DNA of 64,000 nt, taken from sequence record MH791411.1, one strand, 5' to 3'. The position numbers and the translations under genes are program-made. How positions within the stretch are numbered: position 1 is the first letter of the stretch; every line of letters begins with the position of its first letter. This stretch comes from Escherichia phage Ecwhy_1. Below, piece by piece: positions 23,800 through 53,096 of the stretch. The notes beneath the pieces were generated by a model. That model saw only the letters and a program-made list of their open reading frames with translations. It was not told the DNA's origin and made no database searches.

Positions 23800-23800
23800 A

Positions 23801-37714: not shown

Positions 37715-37746
37715 TATAATGCCAGTACTATGTACTGGCTTTTCTT
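37715..37746. terminator. terminator hairpin between convergent genes
   Basis: GCCAGTACTATGTACTGGC + T-run. Confidence 0.6.
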
Positions 37747-38397
37747 TTACATATTATATAATGTGAATGCAGTCACTTTACCAGTTGTTGTTAGTTCATT
37801 ATAAAGATACTCCAAGATTCTCGCACACTCTAAGTATATCTCGATATCATCATGAATAAGTGAGTACTGAAATAGCTGTTCTTCAGGTAATTTGTATTGA
37901 CTTCCTTTTAATGAATTGAGAATATCTTTCACATCATCAAGTACTGGGTAAAGTACGAAATCTTCATCATATTTTGAAGCAATAAATTCAAATCCACCAC
38001 CATCAGTACTAGATATACCAATCAGTACTTTATCAATCAAGTTAATGTTTATATAACGGTTGTGATTTGGGTGAATTGAAATCTCAAACATAAGAGTACT
38101 GTTACAATCAACATCAATATACAAATATACATCATTGAATTTATAAGTTAAGCAACCGTACTCAAGAAAATCAGAGCAAATAATTGATGAGTTTTTTCTC
38201 GTCTCTGCGTAATGCATCTTGATATTCTTTTCACGCATAAGTAATTCGAACTTTGCACTAAACTTGCCACCAGCAAGATAGTTAGTATTAGGACGTTTGT
38301 AACTTGCAACTGGTCGGTGGGATGATGTAAAGTATTTTTTTGTGAATCGTTTATGTTTAGTGAAATATTCTTGATAGAACTTACTTCTTTTATTCAT
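37747..38397 (-). CDS. hypothetical protein (216 aa), opposite strand inside array
   Basis: ORF track; GAGGT SD; divergent from array member 12. Confidence 0.6.
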   Translation of the reverse strand: MNKRSKFYQEYFTKHKRFTKKYFTSSHRPVASYKRPNTNYLAGGKFSAKFELLMREKNIKMHYAETRKNSSIICSDFLEYGCLTYKFNDVYLYIDVDCNSTLMFEISIHPNHNRYININLIDKVLIGISSTDGGGFEFIASKYDEDFVLYPVLDDVKDILNSLKGSQYKLPEEQLFQYSLIHDDIEIYLECARILEYLYNELTTTGKVTAFTLYNM

Positions 38398-38474
38398 GAG
38401 TACCTCAATTAAATCGCTGTAAAATTGTACATTATAAAATGATTAAATAAAGTATAACACAAGGAGATTTTATC

Positions 38475-39599
38475 ATGTTACCTTTCGTATTGTTATTTGA
38501 TTATGGGAACGAAAAACAAGAAAGTTCTTATGATGTTAGTGTATATGGAAACAATAACTACATTTTAAATAAACAAACTGGAAACCTTTTTGCATCCGGT
38601 GCTGCGGCATTCATGGGTGATAACACAGTTAAGTATTATATTACCCAAATAGAATCAAATGTTCATAGCTGTGAGATAGGTTTCCTATCATCATGGATAA
38701 TTAAGAAGGACAAAACTGTTTTCATTTTAGGAAACAAAAGCAGTATAGGATTAACTGGTTCGACAACATCATGGTTCGAAATTACAAATTTATTTTCTGC
38801 TGTTCCTGAAATATGGGACAACCTATTTGAATGTAAAGTTCAATTGGGATATAACTGTATACGTGTTATGACACCACTAGGATCAATCTATGCGATTGGT
38901 ACAAACACTTATGGTGCATTGGGTACTGGTACTACATCCTCATCAACTTCGTTCGTTAAAAGTGGTGCTGTGGATGCTGTACGCATGGAATCAACAGAAC
39001 GTTCAGTGTTCTATCAAAACAGTTCTGGACAATGGTTTGGATGTGGTGATAACACATATGGTATACTAGGTCTAGGAACTACCGCGAGTCGTGTAAACTC
39101 ATACACCGCACCAGTATGGACTAATGCAGAAGCTGTTAGCTTCTCTAACCGTGGGATCATATACAGCCTCAATGGTACTCTATACTCATGTGGTGACAAA
39201 GTTAATGGTCAGCTAGGGGATGGATATACACAAAGCATAGACGCTGCCAGGAGCACACCATACACCATAGGAACCGCATTCCAAATTGGTAAGGCAATAA
39301 CATCAGCTACACAAGCATCAGCCAACGTATTCATTGGTAAAGATAATAAGTTCTATGGTACTGGTAGTATTGCTGCTGGTATAAATGGTAGTGCTAGTGC
39401 TGCATTAAGTAAAGTTACTGCGTTATCAGCATCACTACCACCTGACATTACATACAATGATATTATAACATTTAATACAGGGACCGTAACTTTTATTCAA
39501 GCAAAAGGACAACTATATTATGTTGGTAGAAGAACTTACATAGATAATAGTTCAGACGTTACCACACAGTTCAGTGTAATTGGTGGCTTAGATAATTAA
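38475..39599 (+). CDS. RCC1-like repeat protein, array member 12
   Basis: MLPFVLLFDYGN; NTYGALGTGTT, NTYGILGLGTT, VNGQLGDGY. Confidence 0.85.
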   Translation: MLPFVLLFDYGNEKQESSYDVSVYGNNNYILNKQTGNLFASGAAAFMGDNTVKYYITQIESNVHSCEIGFLSSWIIKKDKTVFILGNKSSIGLTGSTTSWFEITNLFSAVPEIWDNLFECKVQLGYNCIRVMTPLGSIYAIGTNTYGALGTGTTSSSTSFVKSGAVDAVRMESTERSVFYQNSSGQWFGCGDNTYGILGLGTTASRVNSYTAPVWTNAEAVSFSNRGIIYSLNGTLYSCGDKVNGQLGDGYTQSIDAARSTPYTIGTAFQIGKAITSATQASANVFIGKDNKFYGTGSIAAGINGSASAALSKVTALSASLPPDITYNDIITFNTGTVTFIQAKGQLYYVGRRTYIDNSSDVTTQFSVIGGLDN

Positions 39600-39635
39600 A
39601 ATTAATCCAGTACTATTATAGTACTGGATTTTTTA
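39600..39635. terminator. bidirectional terminator candidate
   Basis: TCCAGTACTATTATAGTACTGGA hairpin flanked by T-runs between convergent genes. Confidence 0.6.
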
Positions 39636-40007
39636 TTATAACATACGTTTTTTACGAATAGTATTGTGGATATTTTTTAAGTAGTTCACACCTTTACACA
39701 ACCCATAAAATACACCAGCACATACACCAAATGCAGGTATCATACATGCAAACATCGTTATCAATTCCCACATCTCCATGCCATCTTGATTCGGTCCAAG
39801 GTCAAAGATAACAACCGAAACCAAACCTGTGATACTTAGCATATAATATGCCATGAAGATAATAAAAGAAACAATACCAACGTCAGATTTTACTGAATTT
39901 AGCATATTATATACTGGGGTTACACAGAAGTAATACAATAACCAAATCAAAGAACCTAAACTAAACACAATAATAGTAATGATTGAAAATATTTCACGAT
40001 AACTCAT
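39636..40007 (-). CDS. small polytopic membrane protein family, member (123 aa)
   Basis: 3-4 hydrophobic segments; basic C-terminus. Confidence 0.65.
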   Translation of the reverse strand: MSYREIFSIITIIVFSLGSLIWLLYYFCVTPVYNMLNSVKSDVGIVSFIIFMAYYMLSITGLVSVVIFDLGPNQDGMEMWELITMFACMIPAFGVCAGVFYGLCKGVNYLKNIHNTIRKKRML

Positions 40008-40008
40008 T

Positions 40009-40371
40009 TTAGTCCCTCGTGCCTAAACGCTCATGGATTTCGGAAATCTTATGATACATCCACGCCAGCAACTCAACGGATGCACAGAGAATAACCACAC
40101 ACAGTGTTAGTGAACATACCATAATACCAAATGTTATAAAATTCGAACTCGATGTTAATAATGCAACCAGCATTAGAATAAAACCAAAATTGAATGCTGT
40201 ACTCAACACAGTATATGCTGGACTATATCTCCTTTGTATTACATCATATATATTTGATAATGGTCGCTTATGGAAGTACTTCCCAATGCACACGAATGCA
40301 TTCAGTGAGAAGATAAATGTATACGCCATTACCATTAATTGACCAATAAAAGATAATTCAATATTATTCAT
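40009..40371 (-). CDS. small membrane protein family member (120 aa)
   Basis: hydrophobic segments; tightly coupled. Confidence 0.65.
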   Translation of the reverse strand: MNNIELSFIGQLMVMAYTFIFSLNAFVCIGKYFHKRPLSNIYDVIQRRYSPAYTVLSTAFNFGFILMLVALLTSSSNFITFGIMVCSLTLCVVILCASVELLAWMYHKISEIHERLGTRD

Positions 40372-40372
40372 G

Positions 40373-40744
40373 TTATCCTCGTTTGCGGTATTTGATGCTT
40401 TGGTGCATTCTCTGAAAATGTGGAACTAATACATATTGTACGGTTTGCCAAATTACCATCAGATTATGGACAGCACCACCGAGTAGACCAAACACTACAC
40501 AGATAATTGCCAGTACTGGATCACCATCTACCATACCCCATTTGAATATATGTAAAATCCATACAGTGATAAGTAGTAATAAACTAATCCAATACGTAGT
40601 AAAAAATCCTGCATGTAATTCATAGTCATCAGCAATTTCATCGTATACGGTTTCCAAGAAGGATACACAGAAGAACTTGCCAATAATAACAATTGTACTA
40701 ATAAACAACATAGCAGTTAATATAATAAGTGCAATTTCCATCAC
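40373..40744 (-). CDS. small membrane protein family member (123 aa)
   Basis: hydrophobic segments; tightly coupled. Confidence 0.65.
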   Translation of the reverse strand: MMEIALIILTAMLFISTIVIIGKFFCVSFLETVYDEIADDYELHAGFFTTYWISLLLLITVWILHIFKWGMVDGDPVLAIICVVFGLLGGAVHNLMVIWQTVQYVLVPHFQRMHQSIKYRKRG

Positions 40745-41055
40745 ATCCCTCGTTTACGCTTTTGATTGCGTCTAAATTCGGTTAGCCCACGAGTAATCGG
40801 TGGCATCAGACTACATAAAAAAATAACAGTTGTTGGTAATAACATGAAGTCAATCATTGCTGTATTAACAGGTGGTTCACATATCAAATAATACAAGCAA
40901 GTAATACTAATTATGGTTGACCCAATAAAAGGAATACAAAATTCTTTTATCTGTTTTTCAACATAATCAAACATCTTCAGTACAAATAAAAATCCAACCC
41001 AACACATAATAAAATAGAATGAATAAAGCGTGTAAATCAATGTTACGATATCCAT
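40741..41055 (-). CDS. small membrane protein family member (104 aa)
   Basis: hydrophobic segments; overlapping stop/start. Confidence 0.65.
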   Translation of the reverse strand: MDIVTLIYTLYSFYFIMCWVGFLFVLKMFDYVEKQIKEFCIPFIGSTIISITCLYYLICEPPVNTAMIDFMLLPTTVIFLCSLMPPITRGLTEFRRNQKRKRGM

Positions 41056-41393
41056 TAGTACCTCGCATCAGGAACTTTAGCACGTAATTTATGAACGACT
41101 GGGAACAACAACAAACTTACATATGCAATAGTTGAACCCCAATAGAATACTAATATAATTGGTTCACCATTGGAACGGAACCCTCTACTAATCATTGAGT
41201 AGTGAATAATTGGCATAATCATCGCCATACCAAACCATGCGTGTAATTTTAATTGCAACAGGTGTTCAGAGATGAATACTGAAATTGGTCGTTTGAAGAA
41301 CCACATAAGAAAGTAGAATCCAGCACTAAGAATATAGTACATAATACTAACTTTCATATACCACGGCAGTAAGTGTAAAAAATATTCCATCAT
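41055..41393 (-). CDS. small membrane protein family member (112 aa)
   Basis: C-term LRAKVPDARY. Confidence 0.65.
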   Translation of the reverse strand: MMEYFLHLLPWYMKVSIMYYILSAGFYFLMWFFKRPISVFISEHLLQLKLHAWFGMAMIMPIIHYSMISRGFRSNGEPIILVFYWGSTIAYVSLLLFPVVHKLRAKVPDARY

Positions 41394-41737
41394 TCCTCCG
41401 GTATCTTGTTTCGAAGTTCAATCATAACACAACAAATTTTAATGGTCAAGTAAAAAACTACACATATCATACCCAATGTACCGTAAACTGCGGAGAATGC
41501 TGGCAGTACCTTTCCTGTGAGTGTTGCTACAATACATGCTATCAATGTTGATGCAAACAACGATTGATTAATGAAAGAATTCATAAAATCTTCACCATTA
41601 CGCTTATAGAATTGTCGTTTAAAATACCATCCTAGAAACATAACTACCCAAAATGTTACATAACCTGTTAGAATAATCCCTGCAATTGAATGTGCAACAG
41701 AACTACTCTTTAAAAACTCAAGATAAGATTCAAACAT
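41390..41737 (-). CDS. small membrane protein family member (115 aa)
   Basis: C-term LRNKIPEE. Confidence 0.65.
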   Translation of the reverse strand: MFESYLEFLKSSSVAHSIAGIILTGYVTFWVVMFLGWYFKRQFYKRNGEDFMNSFINQSLFASTLIACIVATLTGKVLPAFSAVYGTLGMICVVFYLTIKICCVMIELRNKIPEE

Positions 41738-42075
41738 TAGAAGTCCCCACGAATTTTTGCTCTACCATTAATGATGAGATTAAACAAGTATATCAGCACC
41801 CAAATTAGTAATCCAAGGAATACAATATATTGTGATATTGAGTTCAACTGTGGATTAGCACAATAAATTAAGTGTGCGATAAGACCAACAATTGCAAACA
41901 TACCTTGGATAATAGTGAAAAGAAGTAGTGAAATGTTTCCATCAGGATACAGTTTGAAAACGATTTTCTTTTTAAAATACCATAGTACTACAACTAGTGC
42001 ATGATAAAAGAAAAAACCAAACAGATAAATCAAAGTAATACTAAGCATTGTATCTGAATTAAAAAACTCAAGCAT
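41737..42075 (-). CDS. small membrane protein family member (112 aa), first of operon
   Basis: AGGAG SD; TTGACA..TATAAC promoter upstream. Confidence 0.65.
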   Translation of the reverse strand: MLEFFNSDTMLSITLIYLFGFFFYHALVVVLWYFKKKIVFKLYPDGNISLLLFTIIQGMFAIVGLIAHLIYCANPQLNSISQYIVFLGLLIWVLIYLFNLIINGRAKIRGDF

Positions 42076-42142
42076 ATCGTATCTCCTGTGGTGAATATTA
42101 AGTTATAGTACTACACTATGGTAGTACTGTCAATACATGTAA
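42076..42142 (-). promoter_or_regulatory. promoter of membrane-protein operon
   Basis: minus strand TTGACA ~N19 TATAAC + AGGAG. Confidence 0.5.
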
Positions 42143-42913
42143 TTAAATTTTCTCAAGGAACAAGTTTTCGCACTGCTCTTCCCAATCATACGGATTGTTG
42201 TTGTATACTGCTGAAATCAACAGAGGCATACGCAGTGAAGGAGCACGAAGTGCATCTTCATGTTTCAGCATCCAATTCAGGATTGCTTTGCTACCATTAC
42301 TATTAACACCTTTAGTTGACAGGATGTTGGTCTTGTTCATTACGTTTTCAATGTGAATCATGATATCGCTTTTAGTCTGGATCTGTAAGTCAACATACAC
42401 AGAGCGAGACATAAGAGCAGCATAGTGAGCAGACATTTTGGTTTTAGCTTTAGCATTCAGTGCTAAATCTTTGTTAGTAATGAATACGATACGACCGTTA
42501 AAATCAAAGCTGTTAGGGATACCGTTGGTAGTTAAGTACTTAGAGCTAGTCATGTAAGACACAGTACGTTTACCGCTGTCCAGTACAGCTTTGAGCAGGT
42601 TCATACCGTCTTCTGAATCAAAGATGCTGTCCATATCATCCAGTACTAATACGTTGGTGCTGTGACGATTCTTGTACAGAACTTCATACAGAGCAAGAGT
42701 AGTCATCTTACCACTGATAGTAGCTACGTTCCATTCTGCTGCGTCATGAGCTTTCTGGAGGCGTTGTGACAGGGTGTAAGTCTTACCAACACCAGGTGCA
42801 CCGCTGACAACCATACTTTTTACAGTACTGTTATCGTCGAGCAAACACTCAAGAGCAACCATCATGGAGTTGAAGTTTTTCTGAATTTGAATGCTACGTG
42901 CTTCTCTGGTCAT
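42143..42913 (-). CDS. P-loop NTPase (AAA-type ATPase-like), 256 aa
   Basis: Walker A GAPGVGKT; Walker B-like VLVLDDMD. Confidence 0.75.
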   Translation of the reverse strand: MTREARSIQIQKNFNSMMVALECLLDDNSTVKSMVVSGAPGVGKTYTLSQRLQKAHDAAEWNVATISGKMTTLALYEVLYKNRHSTNVLVLDDMDSIFDSEDGMNLLKAVLDSGKRTVSYMTSSKYLTTNGIPNSFDFNGRIVFITNKDLALNAKAKTKMSAHYAALMSRSVYVDLQIQTKSDIMIHIENVMNKTNILSTKGVNSNGSKAILNWMLKHEDALRAPSLRMPLLISAVYNNNPYDWEEQCENLFLEKI

Positions 42914-42980
42914 TTCGTTATCCTCATCAATTGATGAAATAATTATAGCAAAAAGGGCTGACCTAAGTCAACCCTTTTGT
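42914..42980 (-). promoter_or_regulatory. class-B cassette: terminator hairpin overlapping promoter
   Basis: GGGTTGAC-loop-GTCAGCCC hairpin + T-run; TTGACT (in stem) ~N18 TATAAT; GAGGA SD. Confidence 0.6.
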
Positions 42981-44324
42981 TTAGTTTTGTTTCACCCCAC
43001 CCCATTTTTCATAGATGGCAATAATTTTATCTATGTTGTTTGGTGTAGTTGTTTCTGTATACCCATCCCCCACCTCTCTTTTAGTGAAGATTGGACAAAA
43101 CTGCCTTTTACATTCATTTTCTGCGTTAGTACAATTTCCAACACTTGGAAAGCGATACGAATACATTGGTTTTATATCAAAAATACTATTCAAATTTTGT
43201 TTTGAAACTCGATTGCCCTTTACTGTTTCTTTTCCATATTTCACACCAACACATACCCCGCTGTCCATTATTACATGAATATATGTATATGTTGCACACT
43301 TTCCGGCATCATATGGGTTACCTTGATGTTTATCTAAAAAGTTCGTTATAGATGTTTTATATGGTAAATTATTACTACTCCCCATCAACATTATGTTAGT
43401 TTTCTGATTTGGTTTTTCTGGATTGTGTTCAAACCCTATAAATTTATCATTTGAATTACGAAATTCTAATTCCTTTTTTATACGATATACATACTGTGAT
43501 TTAGTCCAGTGGAAATTAGTTGAACACCTACACGGTATAATATGTGCAGATGATAAATCATTTAGTGTTGCGTAGAATACACCATCACATACACCAGCTT
43601 GTACATATTCATCATAACTACACTTCGCACACACAAATTTGTATAAACGATAATTTCCCCTCATCTTTTCTGATGGTTGAATTGTAAATTCATTAGTTAA
43701 ATGACCATTATTATTAATTTTATCTATATGATATTGTAGTGGTTTAGAGTTAGTTTTAGTTATTGACTCTTTTTTACATTTCATACAACCAAATGTTTTA
43801 TTTTTTGATGTTAACGTATTAATATTAGAAATCGAACAAAACACATTATGTTTGTTACAATAAATTAGTATCTCAGTGTTGGTAGCATTAATTTTATCAT
43901 AAGAACCAAGACCCAATAATGTATATATCCCACCACTGAATTTTTTGAATTGTTCAATAATAGTCATAATATGTTGTGTATTTGTTTTCTTTGTCCACTT
44001 TGTTGCAGATTTCTTTTTAGTAATATGTATGGAGTTTATTCCCAATCCATATATTAAACCATTCGGGACATCATATTTTTTAAGATAGTGTTTACTATTA
44101 TTGTAAATGAAATATCCCAAAATCGAGTTATCATTATTGGAAAAATCATCTTGGGGTAATTTATTAAAATCCATATGGTTGAAATCTTTTGTTGGATGGC
44201 GTTCTGATAAAATAATACGAGTTATTTTATCAGAATCGACCATTTTTGAACAAATTGTAATTCTAACATCTTGTATGAAATTCAATTTGGTACATTTAAA
44301 AGGTACTTTAATATCAACACGCAT
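42981..44324 (-). CDS. Cys-rich hypothetical protein (447 aa)
   Basis: ORF track; several CxxC/CxC pairs; no confident family assignment. Confidence 0.65.
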   Translation of the reverse strand: MRVDIKVPFKCTKLNFIQDVRITICSKMVDSDKITRIILSERHPTKDFNHMDFNKLPQDDFSNNDNSILGYFIYNNSKHYLKKYDVPNGLIYGLGINSIHITKKKSATKWTKKTNTQHIMTIIEQFKKFSGGIYTLLGLGSYDKINATNTEILIYCNKHNVFCSISNINTLTSKNKTFGCMKCKKESITKTNSKPLQYHIDKINNNGHLTNEFTIQPSEKMRGNYRLYKFVCAKCSYDEYVQAGVCDGVFYATLNDLSSAHIIPCRCSTNFHWTKSQYVYRIKKELEFRNSNDKFIGFEHNPEKPNQKTNIMLMGSSNNLPYKTSITNFLDKHQGNPYDAGKCATYTYIHVIMDSGVCVGVKYGKETVKGNRVSKQNLNSIFDIKPMYSYRFPSVGNCTNAENECKRQFCPIFTKREVGDGYTETTTPNNIDKIIAIYEKWGGVKQN

Positions 44325-44553
44325 TACTTAAAACTCCTTTCCAGTACTGAACCCGTCCAGCACCATTAATCTTAGCTTGAATCTTATCTTTTTCGACAAG
44401 ACCTTCTTTGTAATCGATGGAAGTATTATCGCACTGAATTACATCTAAGTCAAGTACTTCTTGTGTACTTAATGAAGTATTGTCTGCAATTTGTTGTAAT
44501 GTAATGATATCAGTACCGAAGAATTCTGCTAAACGTATAAAAGATAGTTTCAT
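44314..44553 (-). CDS. hypothetical protein (79 aa)
   Basis: ORF track; overlaps start of 447-aa gene. Confidence 0.55.
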   Translation of the reverse strand: MKLSFIRLAEFFGTDIITLQQIADNTSLSTQEVLDLDVIQCDNTSIDYKEGLVEKDKIQAKINGAGRVQYWKGVLSNAC

Positions 44554-44673
44554 GTATTGCCTCTTGAGATGATGAAATAATTATAGCAAAAAGGGCTGAC
44601 CTAAGTCAACCCTGTTTTAAAGTTTTTTTAATATGTTGATAACGACGGTATGTATTCACCATCTGTCATCATT
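44554..44673 (-). promoter_or_regulatory. class-B cassette
   Basis: same ~45 bp as 42925-42975. Confidence 0.6.
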
Positions 44674-45411
44674 TCACACGATATCCCCATATGGTTTAAT
44701 TGTTTTTAGACACCAAGGAATAGGAATCCCATATTCAGAACCCCATAAATCTGAATAAGAATTATAGAGTTCACCAAGTTCTTTCATCTGTTCATAGTTG
44801 TTCAACAACTGATATTGAAAGTCTAAGCCTTCATCCCCAACTGGTACAAACTTATTACCAAGTAGGTTATTTTTTACTTTACCTATATGTATGCCATGTG
44901 TCGCATCAGATATCGTCCCATCACTTTCTAACCAAAACGATCCATCATATGATCCACTACCTCTACGAATATAAATTCTTTCTCCATATGGAACAATAGC
45001 TGGAGTTGTCATATCATGCAATGCATTATTGTACTTATTATCTTTATCAAAAGTATTAATACTACCTTCAGAAAAAGATTTATTATTAGAAAGAATAAAG
45101 TATGCCATATCATTTATTAATTGTGATGGAACCCATCCATGCGAATCACCATCAGAACCTACGTTGTAATAAGTAATTTCGTTTCCTAATTTATCAACTG
45201 TAATATCAATATCATATACAGGAAATGACCCACTATAACGTTCATAACCATGAGCATCGAATGTTAAATATCCATTATTATCTAATATCATACTATAAGT
45301 ACTATTATTAATAACAATAGTAAGTTCTTTTTGTTTTCCACATTTTAAGGTAGTTCGCGAATAAGTTAATTCATAATATGTTTTGTATAAGTAATGTTCT
45401 TCTATCAACAT
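44674..45411 (-). CDS. hypothetical protein (245 aa)
   Basis: ORF track. Confidence 0.6.
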   Translation of the reverse strand: MLIEEHYLYKTYYELTYSRTTLKCGKQKELTIVINNSTYSMILDNNGYLTFDAHGYERYSGSFPVYDIDITVDKLGNEITYYNVGSDGDSHGWVPSQLINDMAYFILSNNKSFSEGSINTFDKDNKYNNALHDMTTPAIVPYGERIYIRRGSGSYDGSFWLESDGTISDATHGIHIGKVKNNLLGNKFVPVGDEGLDFQYQLLNNYEQMKELGELYNSYSDLWGSEYGIPIPWCLKTIKPYGDIV

Positions 45412-45609
45412 TTAAATATCCTTGTTGGATAATCATAACGTTAGTTCGTTAATGATTATTATATAAAGGATGATAACTAACTATTTTTCAAGTTAATATA
45501 TTCACCCCATAAATTATATATATTGTTTTCAACACAATCATCATCGCTTAATTCTATCATTGACGATATAAGTACTGAATAGTTCATTACACATCTGTCA
45601 CTACATCAA

Positions 45610-45804
45610 CTAATCCTCACTGAAAACAACAATAAGGAATGACACGAACAATGCCGCATAACAAGGAGCTATCTTCATGTACCACGGGACTTCATAATAC
45701 CATGTACCCAATTCATCCCACGAAAAGAGTATACTCACACCGAAGCCGATTAGCGATAGTACAATAAAAGAAATCCAGAAACGCTTTGAATATACTAATA
45801 ACAT
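45610..45804 (-). CDS. small membrane peptide (64 aa)
   Basis: two hydrophobic segments. Confidence 0.5.
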   Translation of the reverse strand: MLLVYSKRFWISFIVLSLIGFGVSILFSWDELGTWYYEVPWYMKIAPCYAALFVSFLIVVFSED

Positions 45805-45842
45805 GTTATGTTCCTTTGTGTGACCGAAGTTAACCCTTACCT

Positions 45843-46358
45843 TTAATAATTATTCATTTCATCTTTGATTTGTTCTTCAATTTCGTCGAACATATCAGTA
45901 CTAGATTCTATATTACTACTTACGTCCTGCATATCTTTAACGTACTGTGGGCGTTCAACGTCAGTAAATTTATACCACATAGGCTTCATATGGAGCTTCT
46001 CAATCAAACGCTCACGAGACATTTTAATCTCTGACTCCGATGGTACGTAGTCATTACAAAACTCAGCAGGGAAGCCGCTAATGTCGTTTACTTCAGTGTT
46101 TTGAATCTTCATCCCACGACGCAAACATTCGTTAACAATATCAATATGACGCTTCTGTAAGTACAATAACTTGTTGTAGAAGAATGTTACATGACCTGAA
46201 CCTAACAGGTAAGTACTGTTAATTTTGAAATCACGGACTCGCTTACGTGCTTGAACATGTTTTTGTACAGCACCAAACACACGTGGGAGTTCACGATATT
46301 CAGCCATCAGATGTTGGTCAGCAAGTTCTTTAACGTGTACTAAGTTAATGCGTGTCAT
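45843..46358 (-). CDS. denV: endonuclease V (pyrimidine-dimer DNA glycosylase), T4 DenV homolog
   Basis: [42 protein letters not shown] recalled T4 DenV signature; extra ~33-aa acidic C-terminus. Confidence 0.85.
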
Positions 46359-46430
46359 GTATTCATCCTCTCGTTTCGATGAAATGATTATAGCAAAAAG
46401 GGCTGACCGAAGTCAACCCGTTTTGAAAGG
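46359..46430 (-). promoter_or_regulatory. class-B cassette
   Basis: GGGTTGACTTCGGTCAGCCC hairpin + T-run + TATAAT. Confidence 0.6.
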
Positions 46431-46700
46431 ATTTTTTAATGGTTTTCGTACTGTATGTATTTTGCTTTGTAGTTCTTCTTCCCACAAAACATTTATATTA
46501 TAAACTAAATCATTGTAGTCACTGTTCACAAAGATAAAATCATACTTCTCATTAAAAGTATGAGAAATCAATTGCATTTTCATAAGTATTATTGAACTTT
46601 TAAATTTATATGTTTCTTTTTCTTCTCCAGTTTTTGAACTTTGTATATTTTTTATAAATTCCATGAATTCATCATTGGTCATTGTTTCAGCATCCAACAA
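46413..46700 (-). CDS. hypothetical protein (95 aa)
   Basis: ORF track; 3-prime end runs into cassette hairpin. Confidence 0.5.
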   Translation of the reverse strand: MLDAETMTNDEFMEFIKNIQSSKTGEEKETYKFKSSIILMKMQLISHTFNEKYDFIFVNSDYNDLVYNINVLWEEELQSKIHTVRKPLKNPFKTG

Positions 46701-46977
46701 TACCCAACTTCACAATCTCATACCCATCCAAATATCCATATGAACACTCAGGCGTTTCATAAGATGAACCATCATGGATGCCCTGGCATTGACTTTTGGA
46801 ATTCTCAAGCAATCGTTGCAGTACTGATACGTCATCAAGAACGTAATACAAGTTAGCATATAGGTCCGTTACAATACAGTACTCCAACATGTCAAATGTA
46901 TCAATCGAAATTTCAACCTTAGCAAATTGTTTCTTTTCTTTATTATACAGTGCGTACATATTAATCTCCATAATCAA
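46687..46977 (-). CDS. hypothetical protein (96 aa)
   Basis: ORF track. Confidence 0.5.
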   Translation of the reverse strand: MIMEINMYALYNKEKKQFAKVEISIDTFDMLEYCIVTDLYANLYYVLDDVSVLQRLLENSKSQCQGIHDGSSYETPECSYGYLDGYEIVKLGIVGC

Positions 46978-47332
46978 GTTTAACTAACTTACCACCCAGA
47001 TACCCAAAGTTTTCTGGCTTCGCATCTGAATAGAAGAAGTCAGTACTCAACTCTGAATCCAATGCTAAAGCACACAACTCCACCCAAAATAAACCCCTAT
47101 GTTGTACTGGCTTACAACGTTTCTGTACAGTTACTAGTCCAGTACATGATGACCACAACGTAGGGCAGATACCACTATCACTACGCTTGGAGTACTGCAT
47201 CCAAGAACGTTCATTGAGGTTAGCTATCATCCCTGTTAAGAATAGCTTCCAACTTTTAAAGGTTGGAATCTTGATAGCATATTCCCCAATGAGTATGACA
47301 GTTCGTGTTGCACCTTTCAAATCTATATTCAT
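46961..47332 (-). CDS. hypothetical protein with kinase-like catalytic motifs (123 aa)
   Basis: DAKPENFGY..KLVKLDYGD resembles kinase catalytic loop + DFG; too short for full kinase. Confidence 0.45.
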   Translation of the reverse strand: MNIDLKGATRTVILIGEYAIKIPTFKSWKLFLTGMIANLNERSWMQYSKRSDSGICPTLWSSCTGLVTVQKRCKPVQHRGLFWVELCALALDSELSTDFFYSDAKPENFGYLGGKLVKLDYGD

Positions 47333-47341
47333 ATTTTTTAA

Positions 47342-47593
47342 TTAGAAGAACACAAACCAAGTCCAGAATAAATTCCACACTACAAATAAAGACATAGTGG
47401 TTTTATGTACAATATCAGCAGTACTGGTCCATCCTCCACCGTGTCCTATTCCATTTATGAATAGAACTAAGAACAAGATACCATTTACTACAATAGTACA
47501 TAGTAAGTACACAAACACATTCCATGCAAGTTCAGGGGATACTAACGTAAATGGTAAAACAATTAGTAGTATTAGAACTAATAAAATTTTCAT
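47342..47593 (-). CDS. small membrane protein (83 aa)
   Basis: hydrophobic throughout. Confidence 0.55.
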   Translation of the reverse strand: MKILLVLILLIVLPFTLVSPELAWNVFVYLLCTIVVNGILFLVLFINGIGHGGGWTSTADIVHKTTMSLFVVWNLFWTWFVFF

Positions 47594-47809
47594 TTATCGC
47601 CTCACTTAATTAACGTGACAATTAGTACGAATCAGATTCCCAGTACTCGATTGCTTCTTTCAGCAATTCTTTAGCACGTTGTTTTGCAATGCGAGCGGGT
47701 AACAGATATGTGTACATTAACTGACGCTTCACTTCATTCAGTGAAAGCTGTTCATGGTACAGTGCATCCATCAGTCGATTACGAGTACGTAGTTTCATAT
47801 AAGTTATCC

Positions 47810-48364
47810 TTATTTCAAAGAATCATAGTAAGCAGTGTCAAAGATTGGAGTCATAATAACATAGTCAATACGGTCAATGTAAGTTGAACTCCACATTTCT
47901 GGTTTGTCATAAAATTGACGCTCGCGTTCATTCATACGAGTCAGTACTTCTTCCAATTTACTACGTGAAGCCATCAATGTATTACGCGATCCATAAGTGA
48001 AGTACTCAGTCCATTGATATTCATATTCAGTACTGATAGATTGAATAGTACCATCTTTGAAATGAGCTAAGGCATATCCTTTCTCTACAAAGTTATCAGG
48101 TGGAAGAACACTATCTGGATTAGTTTTCAATGCTTTGGTTAACTTTTCTTTAATTTCAGTTAACGTGCATACTGAACGAATGTTCTTCAGGTTTGATACT
48201 TGAAAATCACTGTACTTTCCAAAGAAAAATACACGCCAATCTTTAGGTTCATTATCAGATACGGTAATATTCGGATGATGGGCGAGTAAACGAAGAAGGC
48301 CAGCTTTGTGACCGTTAATGTAGATCTCATGGATGTGGTTAGCAGTTTTCTTAAAAGTAATCAT
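47810..48364 (-). CDS. hypothetical protein (184 aa)
   Basis: ORF track. Confidence 0.6.
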   Translation of the reverse strand: MITFKKTANHIHEIYINGHKAGLLRLLAHHPNITVSDNEPKDWRVFFFGKYSDFQVSNLKNIRSVCTLTEIKEKLTKALKTNPDSVLPPDNFVEKGYALAHFKDGTIQSISTEYEYQWTEYFTYGSRNTLMASRSKLEEVLTRMNERERQFYDKPEMWSSTYIDRIDYVIMTPIFDTAYYDSLK

Positions 48365-48440
48365 GACAATTCCTCGATTGTGGGGATGAGAAGTTCATCC
48401 CCTTGATAAACATTATACAGTACTGAATGAGTTTGTCAAC

Positions 48441-48821
48441 TCAAAATAAATTCATTTCATGTGCGTATTGTGGTTCAAGATGCGATAAGTTTTTGAAGCT
48501 TTCTTTCAACTCAGCATCATCTACATACACCGTGCCTGGTACATTCCCCATAGTGAAACCTACCCACACAGTCATGTCACCAGTCCCTAAGCGTGGCATT
48601 GATAGCGAACCATCAGGTGAAACATCAAACGCTACACTGAAGTCATCAGTAACAACGTCAGAACCATTTTCGAGAATAATACATCCACTATCTTTAAGCT
48701 TCTGAATGTGGATAGCAGCCTCTACAGCACGTTTGAAGTTATAGTAAGACTCTTTATCCTCAAACATTGATTGTTTAATCAGACGCTTGTTTAGCTCGGT
48801 TACTTTGTGCATTTGACGCAT
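48441..48821 (-). CDS. hypothetical protein (126 aa)
   Basis: ORF track. Confidence 0.55.
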   Translation of the reverse strand: MRQMHKVTELNKRLIKQSMFEDKESYYNFKRAVEAAIHIQKLKDSGCIILENGSDVVTDDFSVAFDVSPDGSLSMPRLGTGDMTVWVGFTMGNVPGTVYVDDAELKESFKNLSHLEPQYAHEMNLF

Positions 48822-49078
48822 TACTTATCCATCTCCCACAGTTGTAGAATTTCATAAGAGCCTGGTGGTGCAGGATTCCTGATCTCAGGGAATTGAGTAC
48901 TTTTAGGATTTCCACCAGCATTAAATTCGTCAAGTAATGATTCCAGTTCGCGACGATCCTGAACAACATAAACACAATCACCTGAACCTTCTTCGAGAAT
49001 CATTTCACTTCCTGCACAATCCCATACTATTGAGATACATAGAATCTCTTTTGTATTTTTATTACGCAATGCAAACAT
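48821..49078 (-). CDS. hypothetical protein (85 aa)
   Basis: ORF track. Confidence 0.55.
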   Translation of the reverse strand: MFALRNKNTKEILCISIVWDCAGSEMILEEGSGDCVYVVQDRRELESLLDEFNAGGNPKSTQFPEIRNPAPPGSYEILQLWEMDK

Positions 49079-49087
49079 AGCAATCCC

Positions 49088-49456
49088 CTATCGATTTGGC
49101 ATTTTATCTCGTAATTTCACAAGATAATCAATCACGGTACATCCTGAAATAAAGGTAATATAAGTACTGAAAAATCCTACCAGAATAAAGGCAACAAGCG
49201 TACTCCCATTTGGTTCTTCAGCTTTAATACCAATGATACCATCAGATGCAGTGAAAAATGTAGACATAAACGTTAGACAGATGTACATCACTAATAAGAA
49301 TTCATGTTCTAATGACGGATAAAAACGGTCAAAGAGTTTATAAAATTTAAAGTACAGTAGGAGTATACCAACAAAGGCATAGAAAGTAAACAGTGTTGTT
49401 ATGATATATGATATTAAATTTAAATTATACATCTCAACGCTCCGGTAGATTATCAC
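49088..49456 (-). CDS. small membrane protein family member (122 aa)
   Basis: same family as 39636-42075; C-term LRDKMPNR. Confidence 0.65.
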   Translation of the reverse strand: MIIYRSVEMYNLNLISYIITTLFTFYAFVGILLLYFKFYKLFDRFYPSLEHEFLLVMYICLTFMSTFFTASDGIIGIKAEEPNGSTLVAFILVGFFSTYITFISGCTVIDYLVKLRDKMPNR

Positions 49457-49781
49457 GTAATGTTTTGATTCGATTATACAATTTCATTGCTACATTTCCA
49501 AATAAACCAAAACCCATTACTAAAATGTATGCGATGAACATAGTAATAATCACAATAGTACCTAGACTGTAATGTACTGCACTAATACCCATTATTGTTT
49601 CTACAATGATGTGAGCAACAGAAATAATCAAAAGTACTACTACAATTGGATGATTTGGATACATTCGGTTAAACAATGTTTTGTACTTAAAGAAGTACAG
49701 TACTCCACCAAATAAGAAGTACACAATGTAGATTGATGCAATAGCATAAGCAAAAGCATTAGTGTAGAAAATCATTATCAA
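49434..49781 (-). CDS. small membrane protein family member (115 aa)
   Basis: C-term LRDNLPER. Confidence 0.65.
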   Translation of the reverse strand: MIMIFYTNAFAYAIASIYIVYFLFGGVLYFFKYKTLFNRMYPNHPIVVVLLIISVAHIIVETIMGISAVHYSLGTIVIITMFIAYILVMGFGLFGNVAMKLYNRIKTLRDNLPER

Positions 49782-49784
49782 TCC

Positions 49785-50123
49785 TTACTTTTCAGGGATT
49801 TTATCACGCCACTCATCAATACGATGAAGCAGTTTAAAGAGCAAAAATATCGGAACAGTAGCTATCATAATGGCAATTGTTAGTAATGTCAACCCCGATA
49901 CGAGATTTAATTCGTCAGTACTATATCCACATACCAGTGCTTCAATTATCCCCCACGTACATGCACAGAACATCATAAATGAAATGGGTGCATCGTAGTA
50001 TATGCGTTGATACAAGGTTGTGTATCGGAAGAATGCAATAATGTAACAAAACATGTAATACACCCAAATTAACGATACTACATAAAATGATACCTTATTA
50101 ATTAATTCAAAATGTTGTTCCAT
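49785..50123 (-). CDS. small membrane protein family member (112 aa)
   Basis: C-term WRDKIPEK. Confidence 0.65.
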   Translation of the reverse strand: MEQHFELINKVSFYVVSLIWVYYMFCYIIAFFRYTTLYQRIYYDAPISFMMFCACTWGIIEALVCGYSTDELNLVSGLTLLTIAIMIATVPIFLLFKLLHRIDEWRDKIPEK

Positions 50124-50133
50124 TTTTTTACCC

Positions 50134-50436
50134 CTACATATATTCTAAGAATAATGTATTAGCTTCGTCTATGTTCTTAAGATAATACATGTAATACAGA
50201 TTTGGTTGTCCGTCTTTTGAACTCAAATCAAAGTACTTTAAACTATGCACCTTCATGACAAAAACAAATAATGACTTAAAACCAATCTCACCGTACTTAA
50301 TAAACAGTTCATCTAAATGAATGTAACTCTTAGTTTCAGATAATTCCTTCACATCAGCTTCAATTTCTTGTAAGCGAAGTTTACCGATTAAGTTTTCAAA
50401 TGAACGCATGATGTTGTTCCTTATGCTGGTACACAA
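50134..50436 (-). CDS. hypothetical protein (100 aa)
   Basis: ORF track. Confidence 0.55.
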   Translation of the reverse strand: MCTSIRNNIMRSFENLIGKLRLQEIEADVKELSETKSYIHLDELFIKYGEIGFKSLFVFVMKVHSLKYFDLSSKDGQPNLYYMYYLKNIDEANTLFLEYM

Positions 50437-50834
50437 TTTTTTATAATGAATACACGTTTCATGAATGAACTTTCATATACGTACTTCAGTTTACCATTTT
50501 CACGCATACGATGAAACACATCTTTACCACTAGTACTCCATGTTGAACCAGTCTCTGCATCAACATTGTTCATTACACCAGATGTTACGTTCACCCCGTA
50601 CTTGAAGCTAAAGGTACTGCCTTCTTCTACTAGAGGGATTGGTGTACTACGTTCATGTTCCAGTACAAGTTTACTGCCGATGATGTTGTACGAAGTTAGC
50701 TTGCATTTTAAAACACCCATCTCTTGTGCAGTTGGGTAATTCTTCTCAAATAAATCAGATACTTCATTTGCATAACAAACTGAACTAATCATAAGAAGTA
50801 ATGAACTGATAGAACGGAAAATAACTTTTAACAT
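50421..50834 (-). CDS. secreted hypothetical protein (137 aa)
   Basis: signal-peptide-like N-terminus. Confidence 0.6.
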   Translation of the reverse strand: MLKVIFRSISSLLLMISSVCYANEVSDLFEKNYPTAQEMGVLKCKLTSYNIIGSKLVLEHERSTPIPLVEEGSTFSFKYGVNVTSGVMNNVDAETGSTWSTSGKDVFHRMRENGKLKYVYESSFMKRVFIIKNCVPA

Positions 50835-50900
50835 GTTTGCCTCCAGTAGTTGATGAAATGATTATAGCAAAAAGGGCCGACCGAAGTCAACCCTTTTCTT
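50835..50900 (-). promoter_or_regulatory. class-B cassette
   Basis: GGGTTGACTTCGGTCGGCCC hairpin + T-run + TATAAT. Confidence 0.6.
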
Positions 50901-51251
50901 TTATATTTTACATGTCATGTCTGGTTTTGGCTTTTCATTCTTTGGCTTTTCAAATGGATTTGGCTTAGGGGACTTTTTATCTTTGTCATCTTTAGCTTTC
51001 TTTTTGTTTTCTTTTTTATCCGATTTGTCAGCTTTGTCTTTCTTATCTTTTGAATCTTTGTCAGCTTTAGATTGTGGTTCCTCACATACAGCAGTTTTTG
51101 GCTCCGGCATATCACATGAGTTATCCACAGGTTTAATGAACTCTTTACAGTTGTAGAAGTATAAACTTTCATTGGTAGTAAGATTGTGGAATCTAAAAGT
51201 ATTTTCACCATTAGTATATACTTTCTTAGTACTCTCAATATCATTACACAT
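50901..51251 (-). CDS. Lys/Asp-rich Cys-containing protein; possibly C-terminal part of a frameshifted secreted protein
   Basis: track ORF starts at GTG; first ATG at 51251; no own signal peptide; upstream ORF with signal peptide ends 13 nt away in another frame. Confidence 0.4.
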   Translation of the reverse strand: MCNDIESTKKVYTNGENTFRFHNLTTNESLYFYNCKEFIKPVDNSCDMPEPKTAVCEEPQSKADKDSKDKKDKADKSDKKENKKKAKDDKDKKSPKPNPFEKPKNEKPKPDMTCKI

Positions 51252-51261: not shown

Positions 51262-51513
51262 TCACCGGAATTCACGCTCGATACCTAGTATATCCGACTT
51301 ACGTTCAGATAGTATTCCAGACGTATATCGATCTTTGTTATCAAATGCATTGAACCCTATAGTTTTATAATTGTCATGTACCAATCCTCTAGTGTAAGAC
51401 TTGGTATAGAACTCACCGTTTCTAAACTCCTGTCTAGCAATGGAGCACTGGTATTCAGTACTATAAACTATATCAGTAAACAATACAAGTGAAAATAAAA
51501 CATATTTAAACAT
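51262..51513 (-). CDS. secreted hypothetical protein (83 aa)
   Basis: signal peptide MFKYVLFSLVLFTDIVYS. Confidence 0.55.
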   Translation of the reverse strand: MFKYVLFSLVLFTDIVYSTEYQCSIARQEFRNGEFYTKSYTRGLVHDNYKTIGFNAFDNKDRYTSGILSERKSDILGIEREFR

Positions 51514-51584
51514 TGCATTACCTCTTATAAAACCCTCTACAATATTTACAAAAAAAGGTTGACCGAAGTCAACCTTTTAAATGT
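51514..51584 (-). promoter_or_regulatory. class-B cassette
   Basis: perfect GGTTGAC-TTCG-GTCAACC hairpin + T7. Confidence 0.6.
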
Positions 51585-53096
51585 TTATTTTTTATCCTTT
51601 CCAACACCACGGTCGTACTCTTTGAATGAGTTATCAAGTGTAGTTAGTGCATACTCATATGCTTCTGGTGATTCAATGTCAACATCATCTGCACCATTTA
51701 CTAAATCAGCCCAAGCCTTTTGAAGTTTACGAGCATTGTTACCAACATTATCTTTAATCCAACTAATGTTTTTGTTGATACTTTTACTATCAGCACCTGC
51801 TTTTTTACCAATCTCGGATATCCACATCATTAGCTTTTGAAGTTCATGAATTGATTTATCGGTCATTTCAAGATGTTCTTCTTCCATACCTTCGGAATCA
51901 GATGAACCAACGTCAATTCCATGTTTAGCTAATAGTTTACCAAGTTCAAAGAATGCAGCTTCAGCAGGGAAGTCATAACCTTTGTCTTTATAGTTATTCC
52001 ATGCACTATCAAACTCGTCAACAAAACGGTTAGCATAATCTGGATTTTTAACTAATGCTTTATATACTGCCATTGCATGTTCAAAACCTTCTTTATCTGA
52101 CCCAAACTCTTCCATCTCAGGACGATGAATGTATCCATCCATATCAACGGTATCAGGTAGATCTTCTTGCTCAGGCTCAACATCTTTCTGTTCAACTGCA
52201 CCTTCTTCATCTTTACGTAGTAGATATCCATCAGGTGTCACTTTCTCACCATGTTCTGCTTCATACTTTTTCATAGTGTTGAATGCAGCATCCATAGCTG
52301 TTACGAAGCGACTTTTCTCACCTTGTACATAAGATTTAAGTGCACTGTTAACTGCATCTGATACGAGCTTAACCTTATCATCTTTACCTTCTAAACGGTT
52401 TTCAAGTTTAGCCAGTACATTCTTGACTTGCTGGGCATTAGCACGTTCTGCTTTACCAATACTATCAAAAATTTTAAGAATACCATCAAGACTTGCTTCA
52501 CCCTGTTCAGGTTCTTTGGAATCTTCTTTGTGTGTACCTTCAAGTGCACGCATGATAGTACTGAATACTTCAGTAGGTTCAGTGCTCTTATTACCTTTCA
52601 TTGCATCAAGTACAGCTTGTGCTTTACCTTTGAGTTCTTCTTTAGGAACTGCCTGTAGTGCTTTGACAATACCCTGAATCAACTGTGGTTTGTTAGCAAA
52701 GATCTTACCTAAGTTATCAGATAACTCTTTAACAGGGTTAGCAGCTTTAGGAGCTTCTGGTTTTGGTTCTTCTTTAGGAACTGCTTGTTCTTTCTCAGCA
52801 CGTTCCATATCAGCAAGGCGTTGTTTCTGTGTTGCGTTAAGAAGACCTAATGAGTTAACATAACGTAGCTTTTCTAGCTCAGTCATGTTCTCAGTACTCT
52901 TAACTTCACCTGCTTCTGCGTTTGCCTTACCAGCTAAACCTGTCCCTTGATTACGTGAACCACGTGACCCCTGTCCTGCTTGGTAGCTATTTTGACGACG
53001 ATTGCGTTCACTCCATTTATCAGAGTGACCTGCCATGTTCCCGCCATTTTTATCAGTAAATTGACCTGGCATTTGATTTCTCTCCATAGATTTCAT
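51585..53096 (-). CDS. hypothetical 503-aa protein, candidate late/virion protein
   Basis: TATAAATA ~27 nt upstream; shares N-terminal domain with 53944-54327. Confidence 0.7.
   Translation of the reverse strand: MKSMERNQMPGQFTDKNGGNMAGHSDKWSERNRRQNSYQAGQGSRGSRNQGTGLAGKANAEAGEVKSTENMTELEKLRYVNSLGLLNATQKQRLADMERAEKEQAVPKEEPKPEAPKAANPVKELSDNLGKIFANKPQLIQGIVKALQAVPKEELKGKAQAVLDAMKGNKSTEPTEVFSTIMRALEGTHKEDSKEPEQGEASLDGILKIFDSIGKAERANAQQVKNVLAKLENRLEGKDDKVKLVSDAVNSALKSYVQGEKSRFVTAMDAAFNTMKKYEAEHGEKVTPDGYLLRKDEEGAVEQKDVEPEQEDLPDTVDMDGYIHRPEMEEFGSDKEGFEHAMAVYKALVKNPDYANRFVDEFDSAWNNYKDKGYDFPAEAAFFELGKLLAKHGIDVGSSDSEGMEEEHLEMTDKSIHELQKLMMWISEIGKKAGADSKSINKNISWIKDNVGNNARKLQKAWADLVNGADDVDIESPEAYEYALTTLDNSFKEYDRGVGKDKK

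Follow-up and report, generated by a model that had tools for sequence, protein, structure and literature searches.

T-even phages carry two small inner-membrane proteins, Imm and Sp, which are expressed early from host-type promoters, are non-essential and are encoded by single-copy genes; Imm has two transmembrane (TM) segments, and Sp has one together with a periplasmic domain. Here, we analysed a 64,000-nucleotide (nt) stretch of Escherichia phage Ecwhy_1 (sequence record MH791411.1; the whole stretch is hereafter the window), in which ten minus-strand genes in two operon-like clusters (m1–m7 at 39636–42075, cluster A; m8–m10 at 49088–50123, cluster B) encode small polytopic membrane proteins of 104–123 amino acids (aa). 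These proteins resemble Imm and Sp as small phage inner-membrane proteins with early host-type promoters and accessory status, traits that are predicted for the window proteins, but they differ in having three TM segments, almost no periplasmic mass and about 10–12 paralogs in arrays, and no Pfam, PHROG or NCBIfam match connects them to either protein. The genes have already been deposited as 'hypothetical' or 'putative membrane' proteins; what is new is the recognition of one family, of its array across genera and of its replacement as cassettes, and our literature search found no paper describing the family, the cross-genus array, cassette replacement or a function.

The second close comparison is with the hyperplastic regions of T4-like phages, in which stem-loop elements termed PeSLs, shown by experiment in RB49 and phi1 to be early promoters and terminators (PMC2839356), flank ORFan cassettes and mediate cassette exchange (PMC2839356, PMC4122927). 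Shared with those regions are repeated stem-loops and sigma-70-like promoters among small non-essential genes, and close relatives that differ by cassette insertion, deletion or replacement. At the present locus, by contrast, the hairpin stem contains the -35 hexamer, the genome is that of a Rak2-like jumbo phage, and the unit replaced is a whole collinear paralog array rather than a single ORFan; relative to the accessory early membrane-protein cassettes known from hyperplastic regions of the T4 superfamily, the distinguishing feature is a conserved multi-paralog array in jumbo phages.

The phage itself is an Asteriusvirus jumbo phage (genus genome size ~350–385 kb). It is a distant T4-superfamily member and, strictly speaking, not one of the T4-type phages with which the original prediction had compared this locus. 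Positions 39000–51000 of the window are 97–98% identical (megablast) to Escherichia phages EC.P1, fEgEco12, CMSTMSU and WPEC3, and 88–91% identical to 121Q, PBECO4, phAPEC6 and UB. Small genes occupy the minus strand from ~64 kb down to 39.6 kb, where plus-strand RCC1-like paralogs converge on them, and the arrays lie in a hyperplastic, accessory region. Ten paralogs had been thought unusual for a phage, but paralog arrays are common in this clade (for example, ~13 RCC1-like genes are annotated adjacent in fEgEco12, and eleven were reported for phAPEC6), and the membrane array is itself a conserved clade feature, labelled 'putative membrane protein' in one existing record (Klebsiella phage Muenster).

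Relationships and topology of the ten proteins

All ten open reading frames (ORFs) of the original prediction are present, each on the minus strand. In the direction of transcription, cluster A begins with m7 (41737–42075, 112 aa, ending ...GRAKIRGDF) and continues through m6 (41390–41737, 115 aa, ending ...LRNKIPEE), m5 (41055–41393, 112 aa, or 111 aa if it starts at 41390, ending ...LRAKVPDARY), m4 (40741–41055, 104 aa, ending ...FRRNQKRKRGM), m3 (40373–40741, 122 aa from ATG 40741, with an alternative GTG at 40744, ending ...MHQSIKYRKRG) and m2 (40009–40371, 120 aa, ending ...IHERLGTRD) to m1 (39636–40007, 123 aa, ending ...IHNTIRKKRML). Cluster B comprises m10 (49785–50123, 112 aa, ending ...WRDKIPEK), m9 (49434–49775, 113 aa from ATG 49775, with a 113-aa ortholog, P0035, ending ...LRDNLPER) and m8 (49088–49432, 114 aa from ATG 49432, ending ...LRDKMPNR). 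A Shine–Dalgarno-like motif (GAGG, GGAG or AGGA type) lies 5–10 nt 5′ of an ATG in all ten genes, and four starts were shifted a little 3′ of those in the mechanical ORF list (m3 to 40741, m8 to ATG 49432 in place of GTG 49456, m9 to ATG 49775 in place of TTG 49781, and m5 possibly to 41390) because of the position of this motif and the annotation of fEgEco12 and 121Q. Packing within the seven-gene array is tight, with four stop/start overlaps of 1–4 nt and two 1-nt gaps. The C-terminal signature R-x-K-(I/M/V)-P-(E/D/N), which had been described as frequent in the group, is exact in m5, m6, m8 and m10 and nearly so in m9 (RDNLPE) and m7 (RAKIRG), whereas m1–m4 end differently, with [HR]-x-x-[IL] followed by a K/R-rich tail.

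To establish relationships among the ten, sequences were compared at two depths. Pairwise BLAST gave clear links only among m8, m9 and m10 (E values of 1e-13 and 1e-8), with most other E values above 0.01, and PHROGs places the ten genes in eight families with a few weak cross-matches. In that resource, entries 27618, 26405, 33258, 27396, 19046, 19454, 19285 and 16874 stand separately as families without an assigned function, with their common origin, arrays and cassette replacement unrecorded, and the window genes match their own PHROGs at E values of 1e-46 to 1e-60. The assignments include phrog_27618 for m1 (with a cross-match to phrog_26405, that of m3), phrog_33258 for m4 (with a weak match to phrog_16874, 'membrane protein', at E 0.009), phrog_19285 for m8 and phrog_19046 for m6, which is the hub of the homology network and cross-matches 16874, 19454 and 27396. 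For the deeper comparison, ortholog groups were built from the corresponding loci of eight other Asteriusviruses, and their profiles were enriched with database and Klebsiella-phage orthologs before a final profile–profile comparison with hhalign. Every one of the ten genes defines a separate ortholog group that is represented in most or all Asteriusvirus loci, with gene order kept (m1, for example, has orthologs in all nine Asteriusvirus loci and in Muenster gene 560, which is 42% identical, and the Muenster ortholog of m3 is gene 559).

Profile comparison joined the groups that BLAST had left apart. Within m1–m4, hhalign linked m1 to m3 at 86%, m3 to m2 at 97% and m2 to m4 at 73%; within m5–m10, it linked m6 to m5 at 97%, to m7 at 88%, to m8 at 83% and to m10 at 92%, with m8, m9 and m10 joined at 98–99%. 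The bridge between these two halves (m2–m6 at 64%, m4–m6 at 50%, with PHROG 16874, matched by both m6 and m4, as a further link) is the weakest point of the single-family case and is only moderate, and m4 is the least securely linked member. Five unrelated control families of small membrane proteins from the same loci gave 0–1% against every family group, with a control–control maximum of 6%. The between-group alignments were full-length and collinear, and short motifs outside the TM segments are common to the groups (M-x-E at the N-terminus, [YF]F[KR][KR] after TM1 and [LI][RH]xx[ILVM] at the C-terminus). When the family model was run against all other ORFs of the 64-kb window, no further match was found.

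It might still be argued that the ten short hydrophobic ORFs are of separate or convergent origin and look alike through membrane-protein composition, given that most pairwise BLAST E values exceed 0.01, that eight separate PHROG families are involved and that the connection of m1–m4 to m5–m10 rests on hhalign values of 50–73%. We consider this highly improbable, as composition of that kind would have to account for full-length collinear profile links where the five control families gave next to none, for motifs held in common outside the TM segments, for equal lengths, TM spacing and topology, and for the recurrence of the paralog types in a second genus with their order largely kept. On the profile evidence, the ten genes are a single, anciently duplicated family. 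The original proposal of small polytopic membrane paralogs with a basic C-terminal tail in two operon-like clusters is thereby borne out by topology and profile–profile links, although the alignment of the ten copies that had been suggested as a check succeeds for all of them at the profile level and by BLAST for m8, m9 and m10 only.

Every copy has three hydrophobic segments, at approximately residues 13, 48 and 82 (the second being weakest in m5), so that of the 'three to four' segments first described, three hold throughout and a fourth is found in none. Family members in 121Q, A4, JNE01, Turkey5, SD-1_S14, ph0011, UB, Muenster, Munch and fHe-Yen9-04 are 100–130 aa long and have the same three-segment pattern. 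Over 91 members, the mean number of lysine plus arginine residues was 0.45 in the N-terminus, 2.9 in loop 1, 0.46 in loop 2 and 4.4 in the C-terminal tail, and acidic residues were favoured in the N-terminus and loop 2. This charge pattern indicates a three-pass topology with the N-terminus out and the C-terminus in (N-out/C-in), in which the N-terminus and loop 2 are predicted to be periplasmic and the basic loop 1 and C-terminal tail cytoplasmic. Agreement in topology between copies had been named as a way to refute the prediction, and the same topology was obtained for all ten copies and across the 91 relatives; TMHMM notes in the Muenster record give N-out/C-in for five of its eight members, N-in/C-out for two and two TM domains for one. 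An AlphaFold2 model of m6 (pLDDT 73.7, pTM 0.52; helices at residues 2–11, 13–38, 42–52, 55–73 and 80–110) suggests a short N-terminal helix, TM1, a cytoplasmic loop-1 helix, TM2 and a long TM3 that runs into the tail. Foldseek found no match to this model among PDB folds and a single match in BFVD, an unnamed 111-aa viral protein (E 0.18, TM-score 0.61) that is possibly a family member.

Distribution and cassette replacement

The family is confined, on the evidence of sequence searches, to Rak2-like jumbo phages. Its profile returned 23 matches among 1.84 billion representative proteins, 22 of which share the architecture (89–125 aa, mapping to known paralog groups or Klebsiella-phage counterparts), the other being a repetitive junk sequence. 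Word-indexed searches, one of them with a 48-sequence cross-genus profile, reached jumbo-phage contigs only, and matching database entries labelled 'Escherichia coli' sit on phage-genome contigs of ~350 kb. By tblastn, m10 was recovered from 35 Escherichia and Salmonella jumbo-phage records only, and m7 and m5 additionally from nine Klebsiella RaK2-group records (m5 with 36–37% identity to proteins of RaK2, K64-1 and Muenster; m7 with 27.6% full-length identity to RaK2-group proteins). Family members were recovered only from ~45 Escherichia, Salmonella and Klebsiella jumbo-phage records, together with Munch and fHe-Yen9-04. Searches of Pfam, NCBIfam and PADLOC gave sub-threshold noise only (DUF973, EI24, SdhC, EmrD and a 2TM effector), and PDB sequence matches to SemiSWEET (E 0.33) and MscS (E 0.95) were likewise dismissed as noise.

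Across these phages, the array keeps a recognizable form. Muenster (Alcyoneusvirus) has eight members 3′ of a P-loop NTPase gene, with two small unrelated genes in between; seven of the eight correspond one-to-one to window types, in the order m6, m6′, m7, m5, m4, m3, m1, and the eighth, gene 561, has weak matches to m10 and m2 only. Salmonella phage Munch has three members after the NTPase, and Yersinia phage fHe-Yen9-04 (Eneladusvirus) has four or five; in both, the array ends at a convergent RCC1-like block, as it does in the window, and no RCC1-like genes were found downstream of the array in the Muenster locus examined. The presence of the array across these genera indicates that it is older than they are. 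Cluster B, by contrast, is a second site found only in Asteriusvirus. Jumbo phages carry hundreds of unassigned genes; with copies counted per genome from an exhaustive protein search and from the tblastn matching places per record, ten such genes here, and about 3–11 per genome in four lineages, now fall into one family. In the RaK2 group, as seen in Muenster (11104–12341 of the locus examined), a putative outer-membrane lipoprotein and a ClpP-like protease follow the array, and neither has an Asteriusvirus counterpart at that position.

Directly 5′ of the seven-gene array lies a P-loop NTPase gene (42143–42913, minus strand; 256 aa; phrog_1250) whose product is 38% identical to T4 NrdC.10 (E 1e-56) and matches AAA and STAND NTPase families in Pfam, only PF00004 (AAA) being above the curated cut-off. 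T4 NrdC.11 proved to be the wrong counterpart, and NrdC.4 and NrdC.5 did not match either. The order from NTPase to array is kept in four lineages (Asteriusvirus, Alcyoneusvirus represented by Muenster, Munch, and Eneladusvirus represented by fHe-Yen9-04), and this conservation, the stop/start overlaps that suggest coupled and roughly equimolar translation, and the retention of every paralog across Asteriusvirus would all suit a hetero-oligomeric membrane complex with the NTPase, serving as an ATP-driven machine or its anchor. We regard such a complex as quite unlikely. NTPase and array alleles assort and recombine independently: the A4 NTPase is 96% identical to that of the window and is accompanied by array proteins at 29–63%, whereas the ph0011 NTPase is 59% identical and is accompanied by array proteins at 60–88%. 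The NTPase is also far more widespread (~1,300 phage records) than the family and is present in T4, where none of the six genes of the nrdC.10–rI region that we tested is a family member; array size ranges from three to eight, with single members lost or frameshifted; and Rak2-like genomes have been reported to be broadly collinear (fEgEco12 paper), so that shared gene order is weak evidence. Within Asteriusvirus, the NTPase itself occurs as two deeply diverged allelic types (96% versus 59–60% protein identity to the window, dS ~2, the latter in ph0011 and JNE01). Close to NrdC.10, T4 also encodes NrdC.7, a 'predicted membrane protein'; we considered it as a relative of the family and rejected it, given its two TM segments with a large domain between them and the lack of a hidden Markov model score.

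Comparison with close relatives revealed that the arrays differ far more than the genes around them. Relative to A4 and JNE01, the family proteins are 26–63% identical, with saturated synonymous divergence (dS 1.3–2.9) and omega of 0.2–0.55, whereas the NTPase (relative to A4), denV and three other neighbours are 93–100% identical, with dS of 0.01–0.4. At the nucleotide level, the window and A4 are 91–95% identical over the NTPase gene and 44.3–48.4 kb, and no nucleotide match was found between them over 39636–42075 (except for 250 bp at 71%) or 48440–~50140. Similarity ends at the array edges, one breakpoint falling not at a PeSL but where the NTPase gene ends, and the diverged arrays keep their internal gene order. 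By these sequence comparisons, the arrays are old allelic cassettes that have been swapped whole, not new insertions. Orthologs have evolved under purifying selection (omega 0.1–0.55), and within ortholog groups the N-terminal half is 74–75% conserved, compared with 56–67% for TM2, loop 2, TM3 and the tail.

Copy number varies as well. In Asteriusvirus, cluster A ranges in size from six to eight members, with the m7 type duplicated in 121Q, ph0011 and UB and the m4 type in JNE01 and Turkey5; m4 is split by a frameshift in 121Q (genes 228/229), and an intact m6 was not found in the locus of Salmonella phage SD-1_S14. For cluster B, A4 carries a single member, compared with three in the window and in most relatives.

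Promoters and candidate roles

A 33-bp composite element, GGGTTGACTTNGGTCRGCCCTTTTTGCTATAAT, is present in four minus-strand copies in the window (42942–42974, 44580–44612, 46387–46419 and 50861–50893), where 0 would be expected by chance. It consists of a hairpin with a -35 hexamer in its stem, a T-run and an extended -10 (TTGACT-N18-TGnTATAAT), is scored as a terminator and also as a promoter (11/12), and is conserved in seven of nine related loci, including 5′ of the NTPase gene. This repeated composite of stem-loop and promoter corresponds to the PeSL elements. We know of no previous description of PeSLs in Rak2-like jumbo phages. The copy at 42942–42974, a PeSL-like composite of hairpin and sigma-70-type promoter (GGGTTGACTTAGGTCAGCCCTTTTTGCTATAAT), heads the unit that runs from the NTPase through m7 to m1, and the copy at 50861–50893 heads the unit containing m10, m9 and m8. 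A candidate weaker internal promoter (TTGACA-17-TACTAT; 42105–42133, minus strand), which is a consensus match only, falls in the 67-bp gap between the NTPase and m7, and a bidirectional terminator hairpin with a 12-bp stem (39604–39630) separates the end of m1 from that of the convergent RCC1-like gene. The cluster-B unit (48441–50834, minus strand) encodes, in order, a 137-aa protein (50421–50834), a 100-aa protein (50134–50436), m10, m9, m8, an 85-aa protein (48821–49078) and a 126-aa protein (48441–48821), and ends at a 12/12 sigma-70 consensus promoter (48412–48439). The 137-aa protein encoded by its first gene has a signal-peptide-like N-terminus (MLKVIFRSISSLLLMISSVCYA/NE) and is likewise envelope-directed.

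No copy of the T4-type late motif, TATAAATA, lies near the arrays; on the minus strand of the window, it occurs only at 53125 and 54367. Both occurrences lie ~40–55 nt 5′ of the inferred starts of two genes annotated in fEgEco12 as virion structural genes (~51584–53071 and ~53943–54326, window coordinates inferred by offset from the fEgEco12 record), which probably correspond to gp035c and gp037c of phAPEC6, two proteins detected in virions by mass spectrometry. The late motifs at these structural genes serve as an internal control for assigning promoter classes; the two genes are late genes embedded in an otherwise early-type region. Mass spectrometry of phAPEC6 virions found no protein between gp010 and gp035c, an interval that, judged by gene order, would hold the arrays, with the caveat that small membrane proteins are hard to detect by this method. 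As regards the suggested partnership with the diversified large proteins, the large RCC1-like proteins are virion-associated in phAPEC6, whereas no small membrane protein of the region is. The family proteins are presumably non-virion components, and the promoter type, by analogy with other phages, suggests that the arrays are transcribed early by host RNA polymerase from PeSL-like promoters, in line with earlier arguments on the early regions of CBB and PA5oct, two related phages.

The promoter class also bears on lysis. Class I holins of the lambda S105 type are ~105 aa long, with three TM segments, N-out/C-in topology and a charged C-terminus, and the family has this shape (~105–120 aa, three TM segments, N-out/C-in, basic C-terminal tail). 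Holin/antiholin variation was accordingly one of the roles first proposed, in which the ten would be lysis-timing proteins. The shape, however, comes in ten copies and with neither a lysis cassette nor holin homology: in fEgEco12, the 39 kb surrounding the arrays contain 75 annotated genes, not one of which is labelled endolysin, spanin or holin, the holin and lysozyme of that phage evidently lying elsewhere in the record; the neighbours that we scanned lack a lysozyme domain; and no holin family appears among Pfam or PHROG matches at E ≤ 1. Promoters of the array units are of the sigma-70/PeSL type, with no late motif nearby, and ten or more early-expressed holins would kill the infection. 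We give this role very little credence.

Deeply diverged cassettes between flanks that are 93–100% identical are a pattern typical of phage–phage and phage–host conflict loci. Together with the accessory status and variable copy number of the genes, this cassette-level allelic diversity among near-identical phages leads us to favour, tentatively, a role as early inner-membrane conflict factors of the superinfection-exclusion or immunity type. Among the three roles originally put forward (the others being holin/antiholin variation and membrane partnership with the diversified large proteins), exclusion or immunity is the most plausible, with indirect support from the cassette-like replacement. 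Transcribed early by host RNA polymerase, the genes would supply the infected cell with proteins that work at its inner membrane, each paralog blocking a different membrane-level attack, such as DNA entry of competing phages. The conserved cytoplasmic features may set topology or a common contact, the more variable half from TM2 through loop 2 to TM3 may set specificity, and whole arrays would pass between phages as cassettes.

Several observations weigh against this proposal. In Pfam, NCBIfam, PHROG, PADLOC and PDB, we found no homology that would assign the family a function, whether exclusion or another, and early expression of the arrays is itself deduced from promoter consensus and analogy with other phages. 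A surface that blocks DNA ejection would be expected to face outwards, but the features conserved between paralogs are cytoplasmic, and the predicted periplasmic exposure is tiny (~11 aa of N-terminus and ~12 aa of loop 2). Differences in regional conservation within ortholog groups are modest (56–75%), and other small membrane proteins of the region are equally divergent between relatives, such that the divergence may reflect the region and not this family in particular. Finally, the paralogs have one-to-one orthologs throughout Asteriusvirus, and seven of eight genes in Muenster can be paired in the same way (groups m1 and m3–m7), indicating an old and stable repertoire without the turnover seen at many arms-race loci.

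The same long-term conservation of each paralog is what would be expected if the proteins took over the host, each binding a different inner-membrane machine (transport, respiration, division or secretion) for the long jumbo-phage cycle. Their site in an early region among many small envelope-directed ORFs is compatible with such a role, as is PHROG 16874 (m6 at E 3e-6, m4 at E 0.009), the only annotated family touched, whose category is 'moron, auxiliary metabolic gene and host takeover'. Conserved targets, though, do not predict deeply diverged cassettes in phages that infect the same species and have 93–100% identical flanks, nor the loss of single members in isolates, and we consider host takeover unlikely on balance.

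Pore-forming colicin immunity proteins (E1 and A types) offer another precedent, with 3–4 TM segments, ~110–180 aa, action within the bilayer and many specificity variants. By analogy, each paralog might neutralize a different membrane-acting killer in the infected cell by intercepting it within the bilayer, candidate targets being pore-forming abortive-infection effectors (Rex, Pif, and the TM effectors of CBASS, retrons or Pycsar) and pore-forming bacteriocins. Such counter-defence or immunity would fit the small size and polytopic build of these inner-membrane proteins, which lie mostly within the bilayer, the concentration of variability within ortholog groups in TM2–TM3, the allelic replacement by cassette with variable copy number, and the early promoter class. 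The colicin proteins, however, are encoded by bacteriocin plasmids and the present family by lytic phages; no Pfam or NCBIfam match to colicin immunity families was found (the sole 'immunity' match, NF053812 at E 0.6, is noise), nor any similarity to PADLOC entries; no cognate toxin gene was seen near the arrays; the long-term one-to-one orthology points to conserved targets; and the very small periplasmic exposure counts against this reading as it does against exclusion. We view counter-defence as unlikely, although it is the main rival of the exclusion reading. A more specific version, a membrane immunity set swapped as specificity cassettes and intercepting host abortive-infection (Abi) effectors, bacteriocin pores or membrane-attack proteins of rival phages, appears slightly less probable still in our judgement.

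If the favoured role in exclusion, or in disarming membrane defences, is correct, it would affect how Asteriusvirus and RaK2-type phages, several of which are under development for therapy, can be combined in therapeutic cocktails, and the family would be a new source of small membrane-acting inhibitors. A membrane immunity set, if real, would constitute a new anti-defence class whose site of action is the membrane interior, as opposed to sensors or signals in the cytoplasm. Even if the function proves mundane, the family is a useful marker of the Rak2-like clade, and PeSL-type cassette exchange is extended to jumbo phages. Natural allelic cassettes exist, and the genes are short.

Neighbouring loci

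The plus-strand array that converges on cluster A consists of RCC1-repeat ('DNA condensation') genes at ~20000–39599, the last of which spans 38475–39599. In phAPEC6, RCC1-like gp003, gp005, gp006, gp007, gp009 and gp010 were found in virions by mass spectrometry, and RCC1-like copies are often fragmented in 121Q, UB and SD-1_S14.

Between the NTPase unit and denV, ~2.9 kb at 42981–45804 (minus strand) are absent from fEgEco12. This block, which accounts for the gaps in megablast coverage and varies in content between relatives, includes a gene (42981–44324, minus strand) whose 447-aa product carries a CapR domain and matches an endonuclease-type PHROG; relatives carry HNH genes or a methyltransferase there, and it looks like an insertion site for mobile or homing-endonuclease elements. 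Two identical copies of the 33-bp element bracket the variable stretch at 42981–44553.

The ortholog of the gene at 51262–51513 (minus strand) is labelled 'lytic conversion lipoprotein' in fEgEco12, a label that we did not adopt, the protein having no lipobox and no Pfam match; the fEgEco12 record has three genes so labelled, and the PHROG of 51262–51513 has no assigned function. Seven other minus-strand ORFs in the window, all outside the family, encode small predicted membrane proteins with 2–3 TM segments (45610–45804, 47342–47593, 53471–53734, 55523–55759, 58067–58450, 58905–59231 and 59290–59532). Two of these, 58067–58450 and 58905–59231, are 27–59% identical between relatives and hence as divergent as the family genes, and two others, 55523–55759 and 59290–59532, may form a pair of distantly related paralogs (hhalign 24% local, 6% global).

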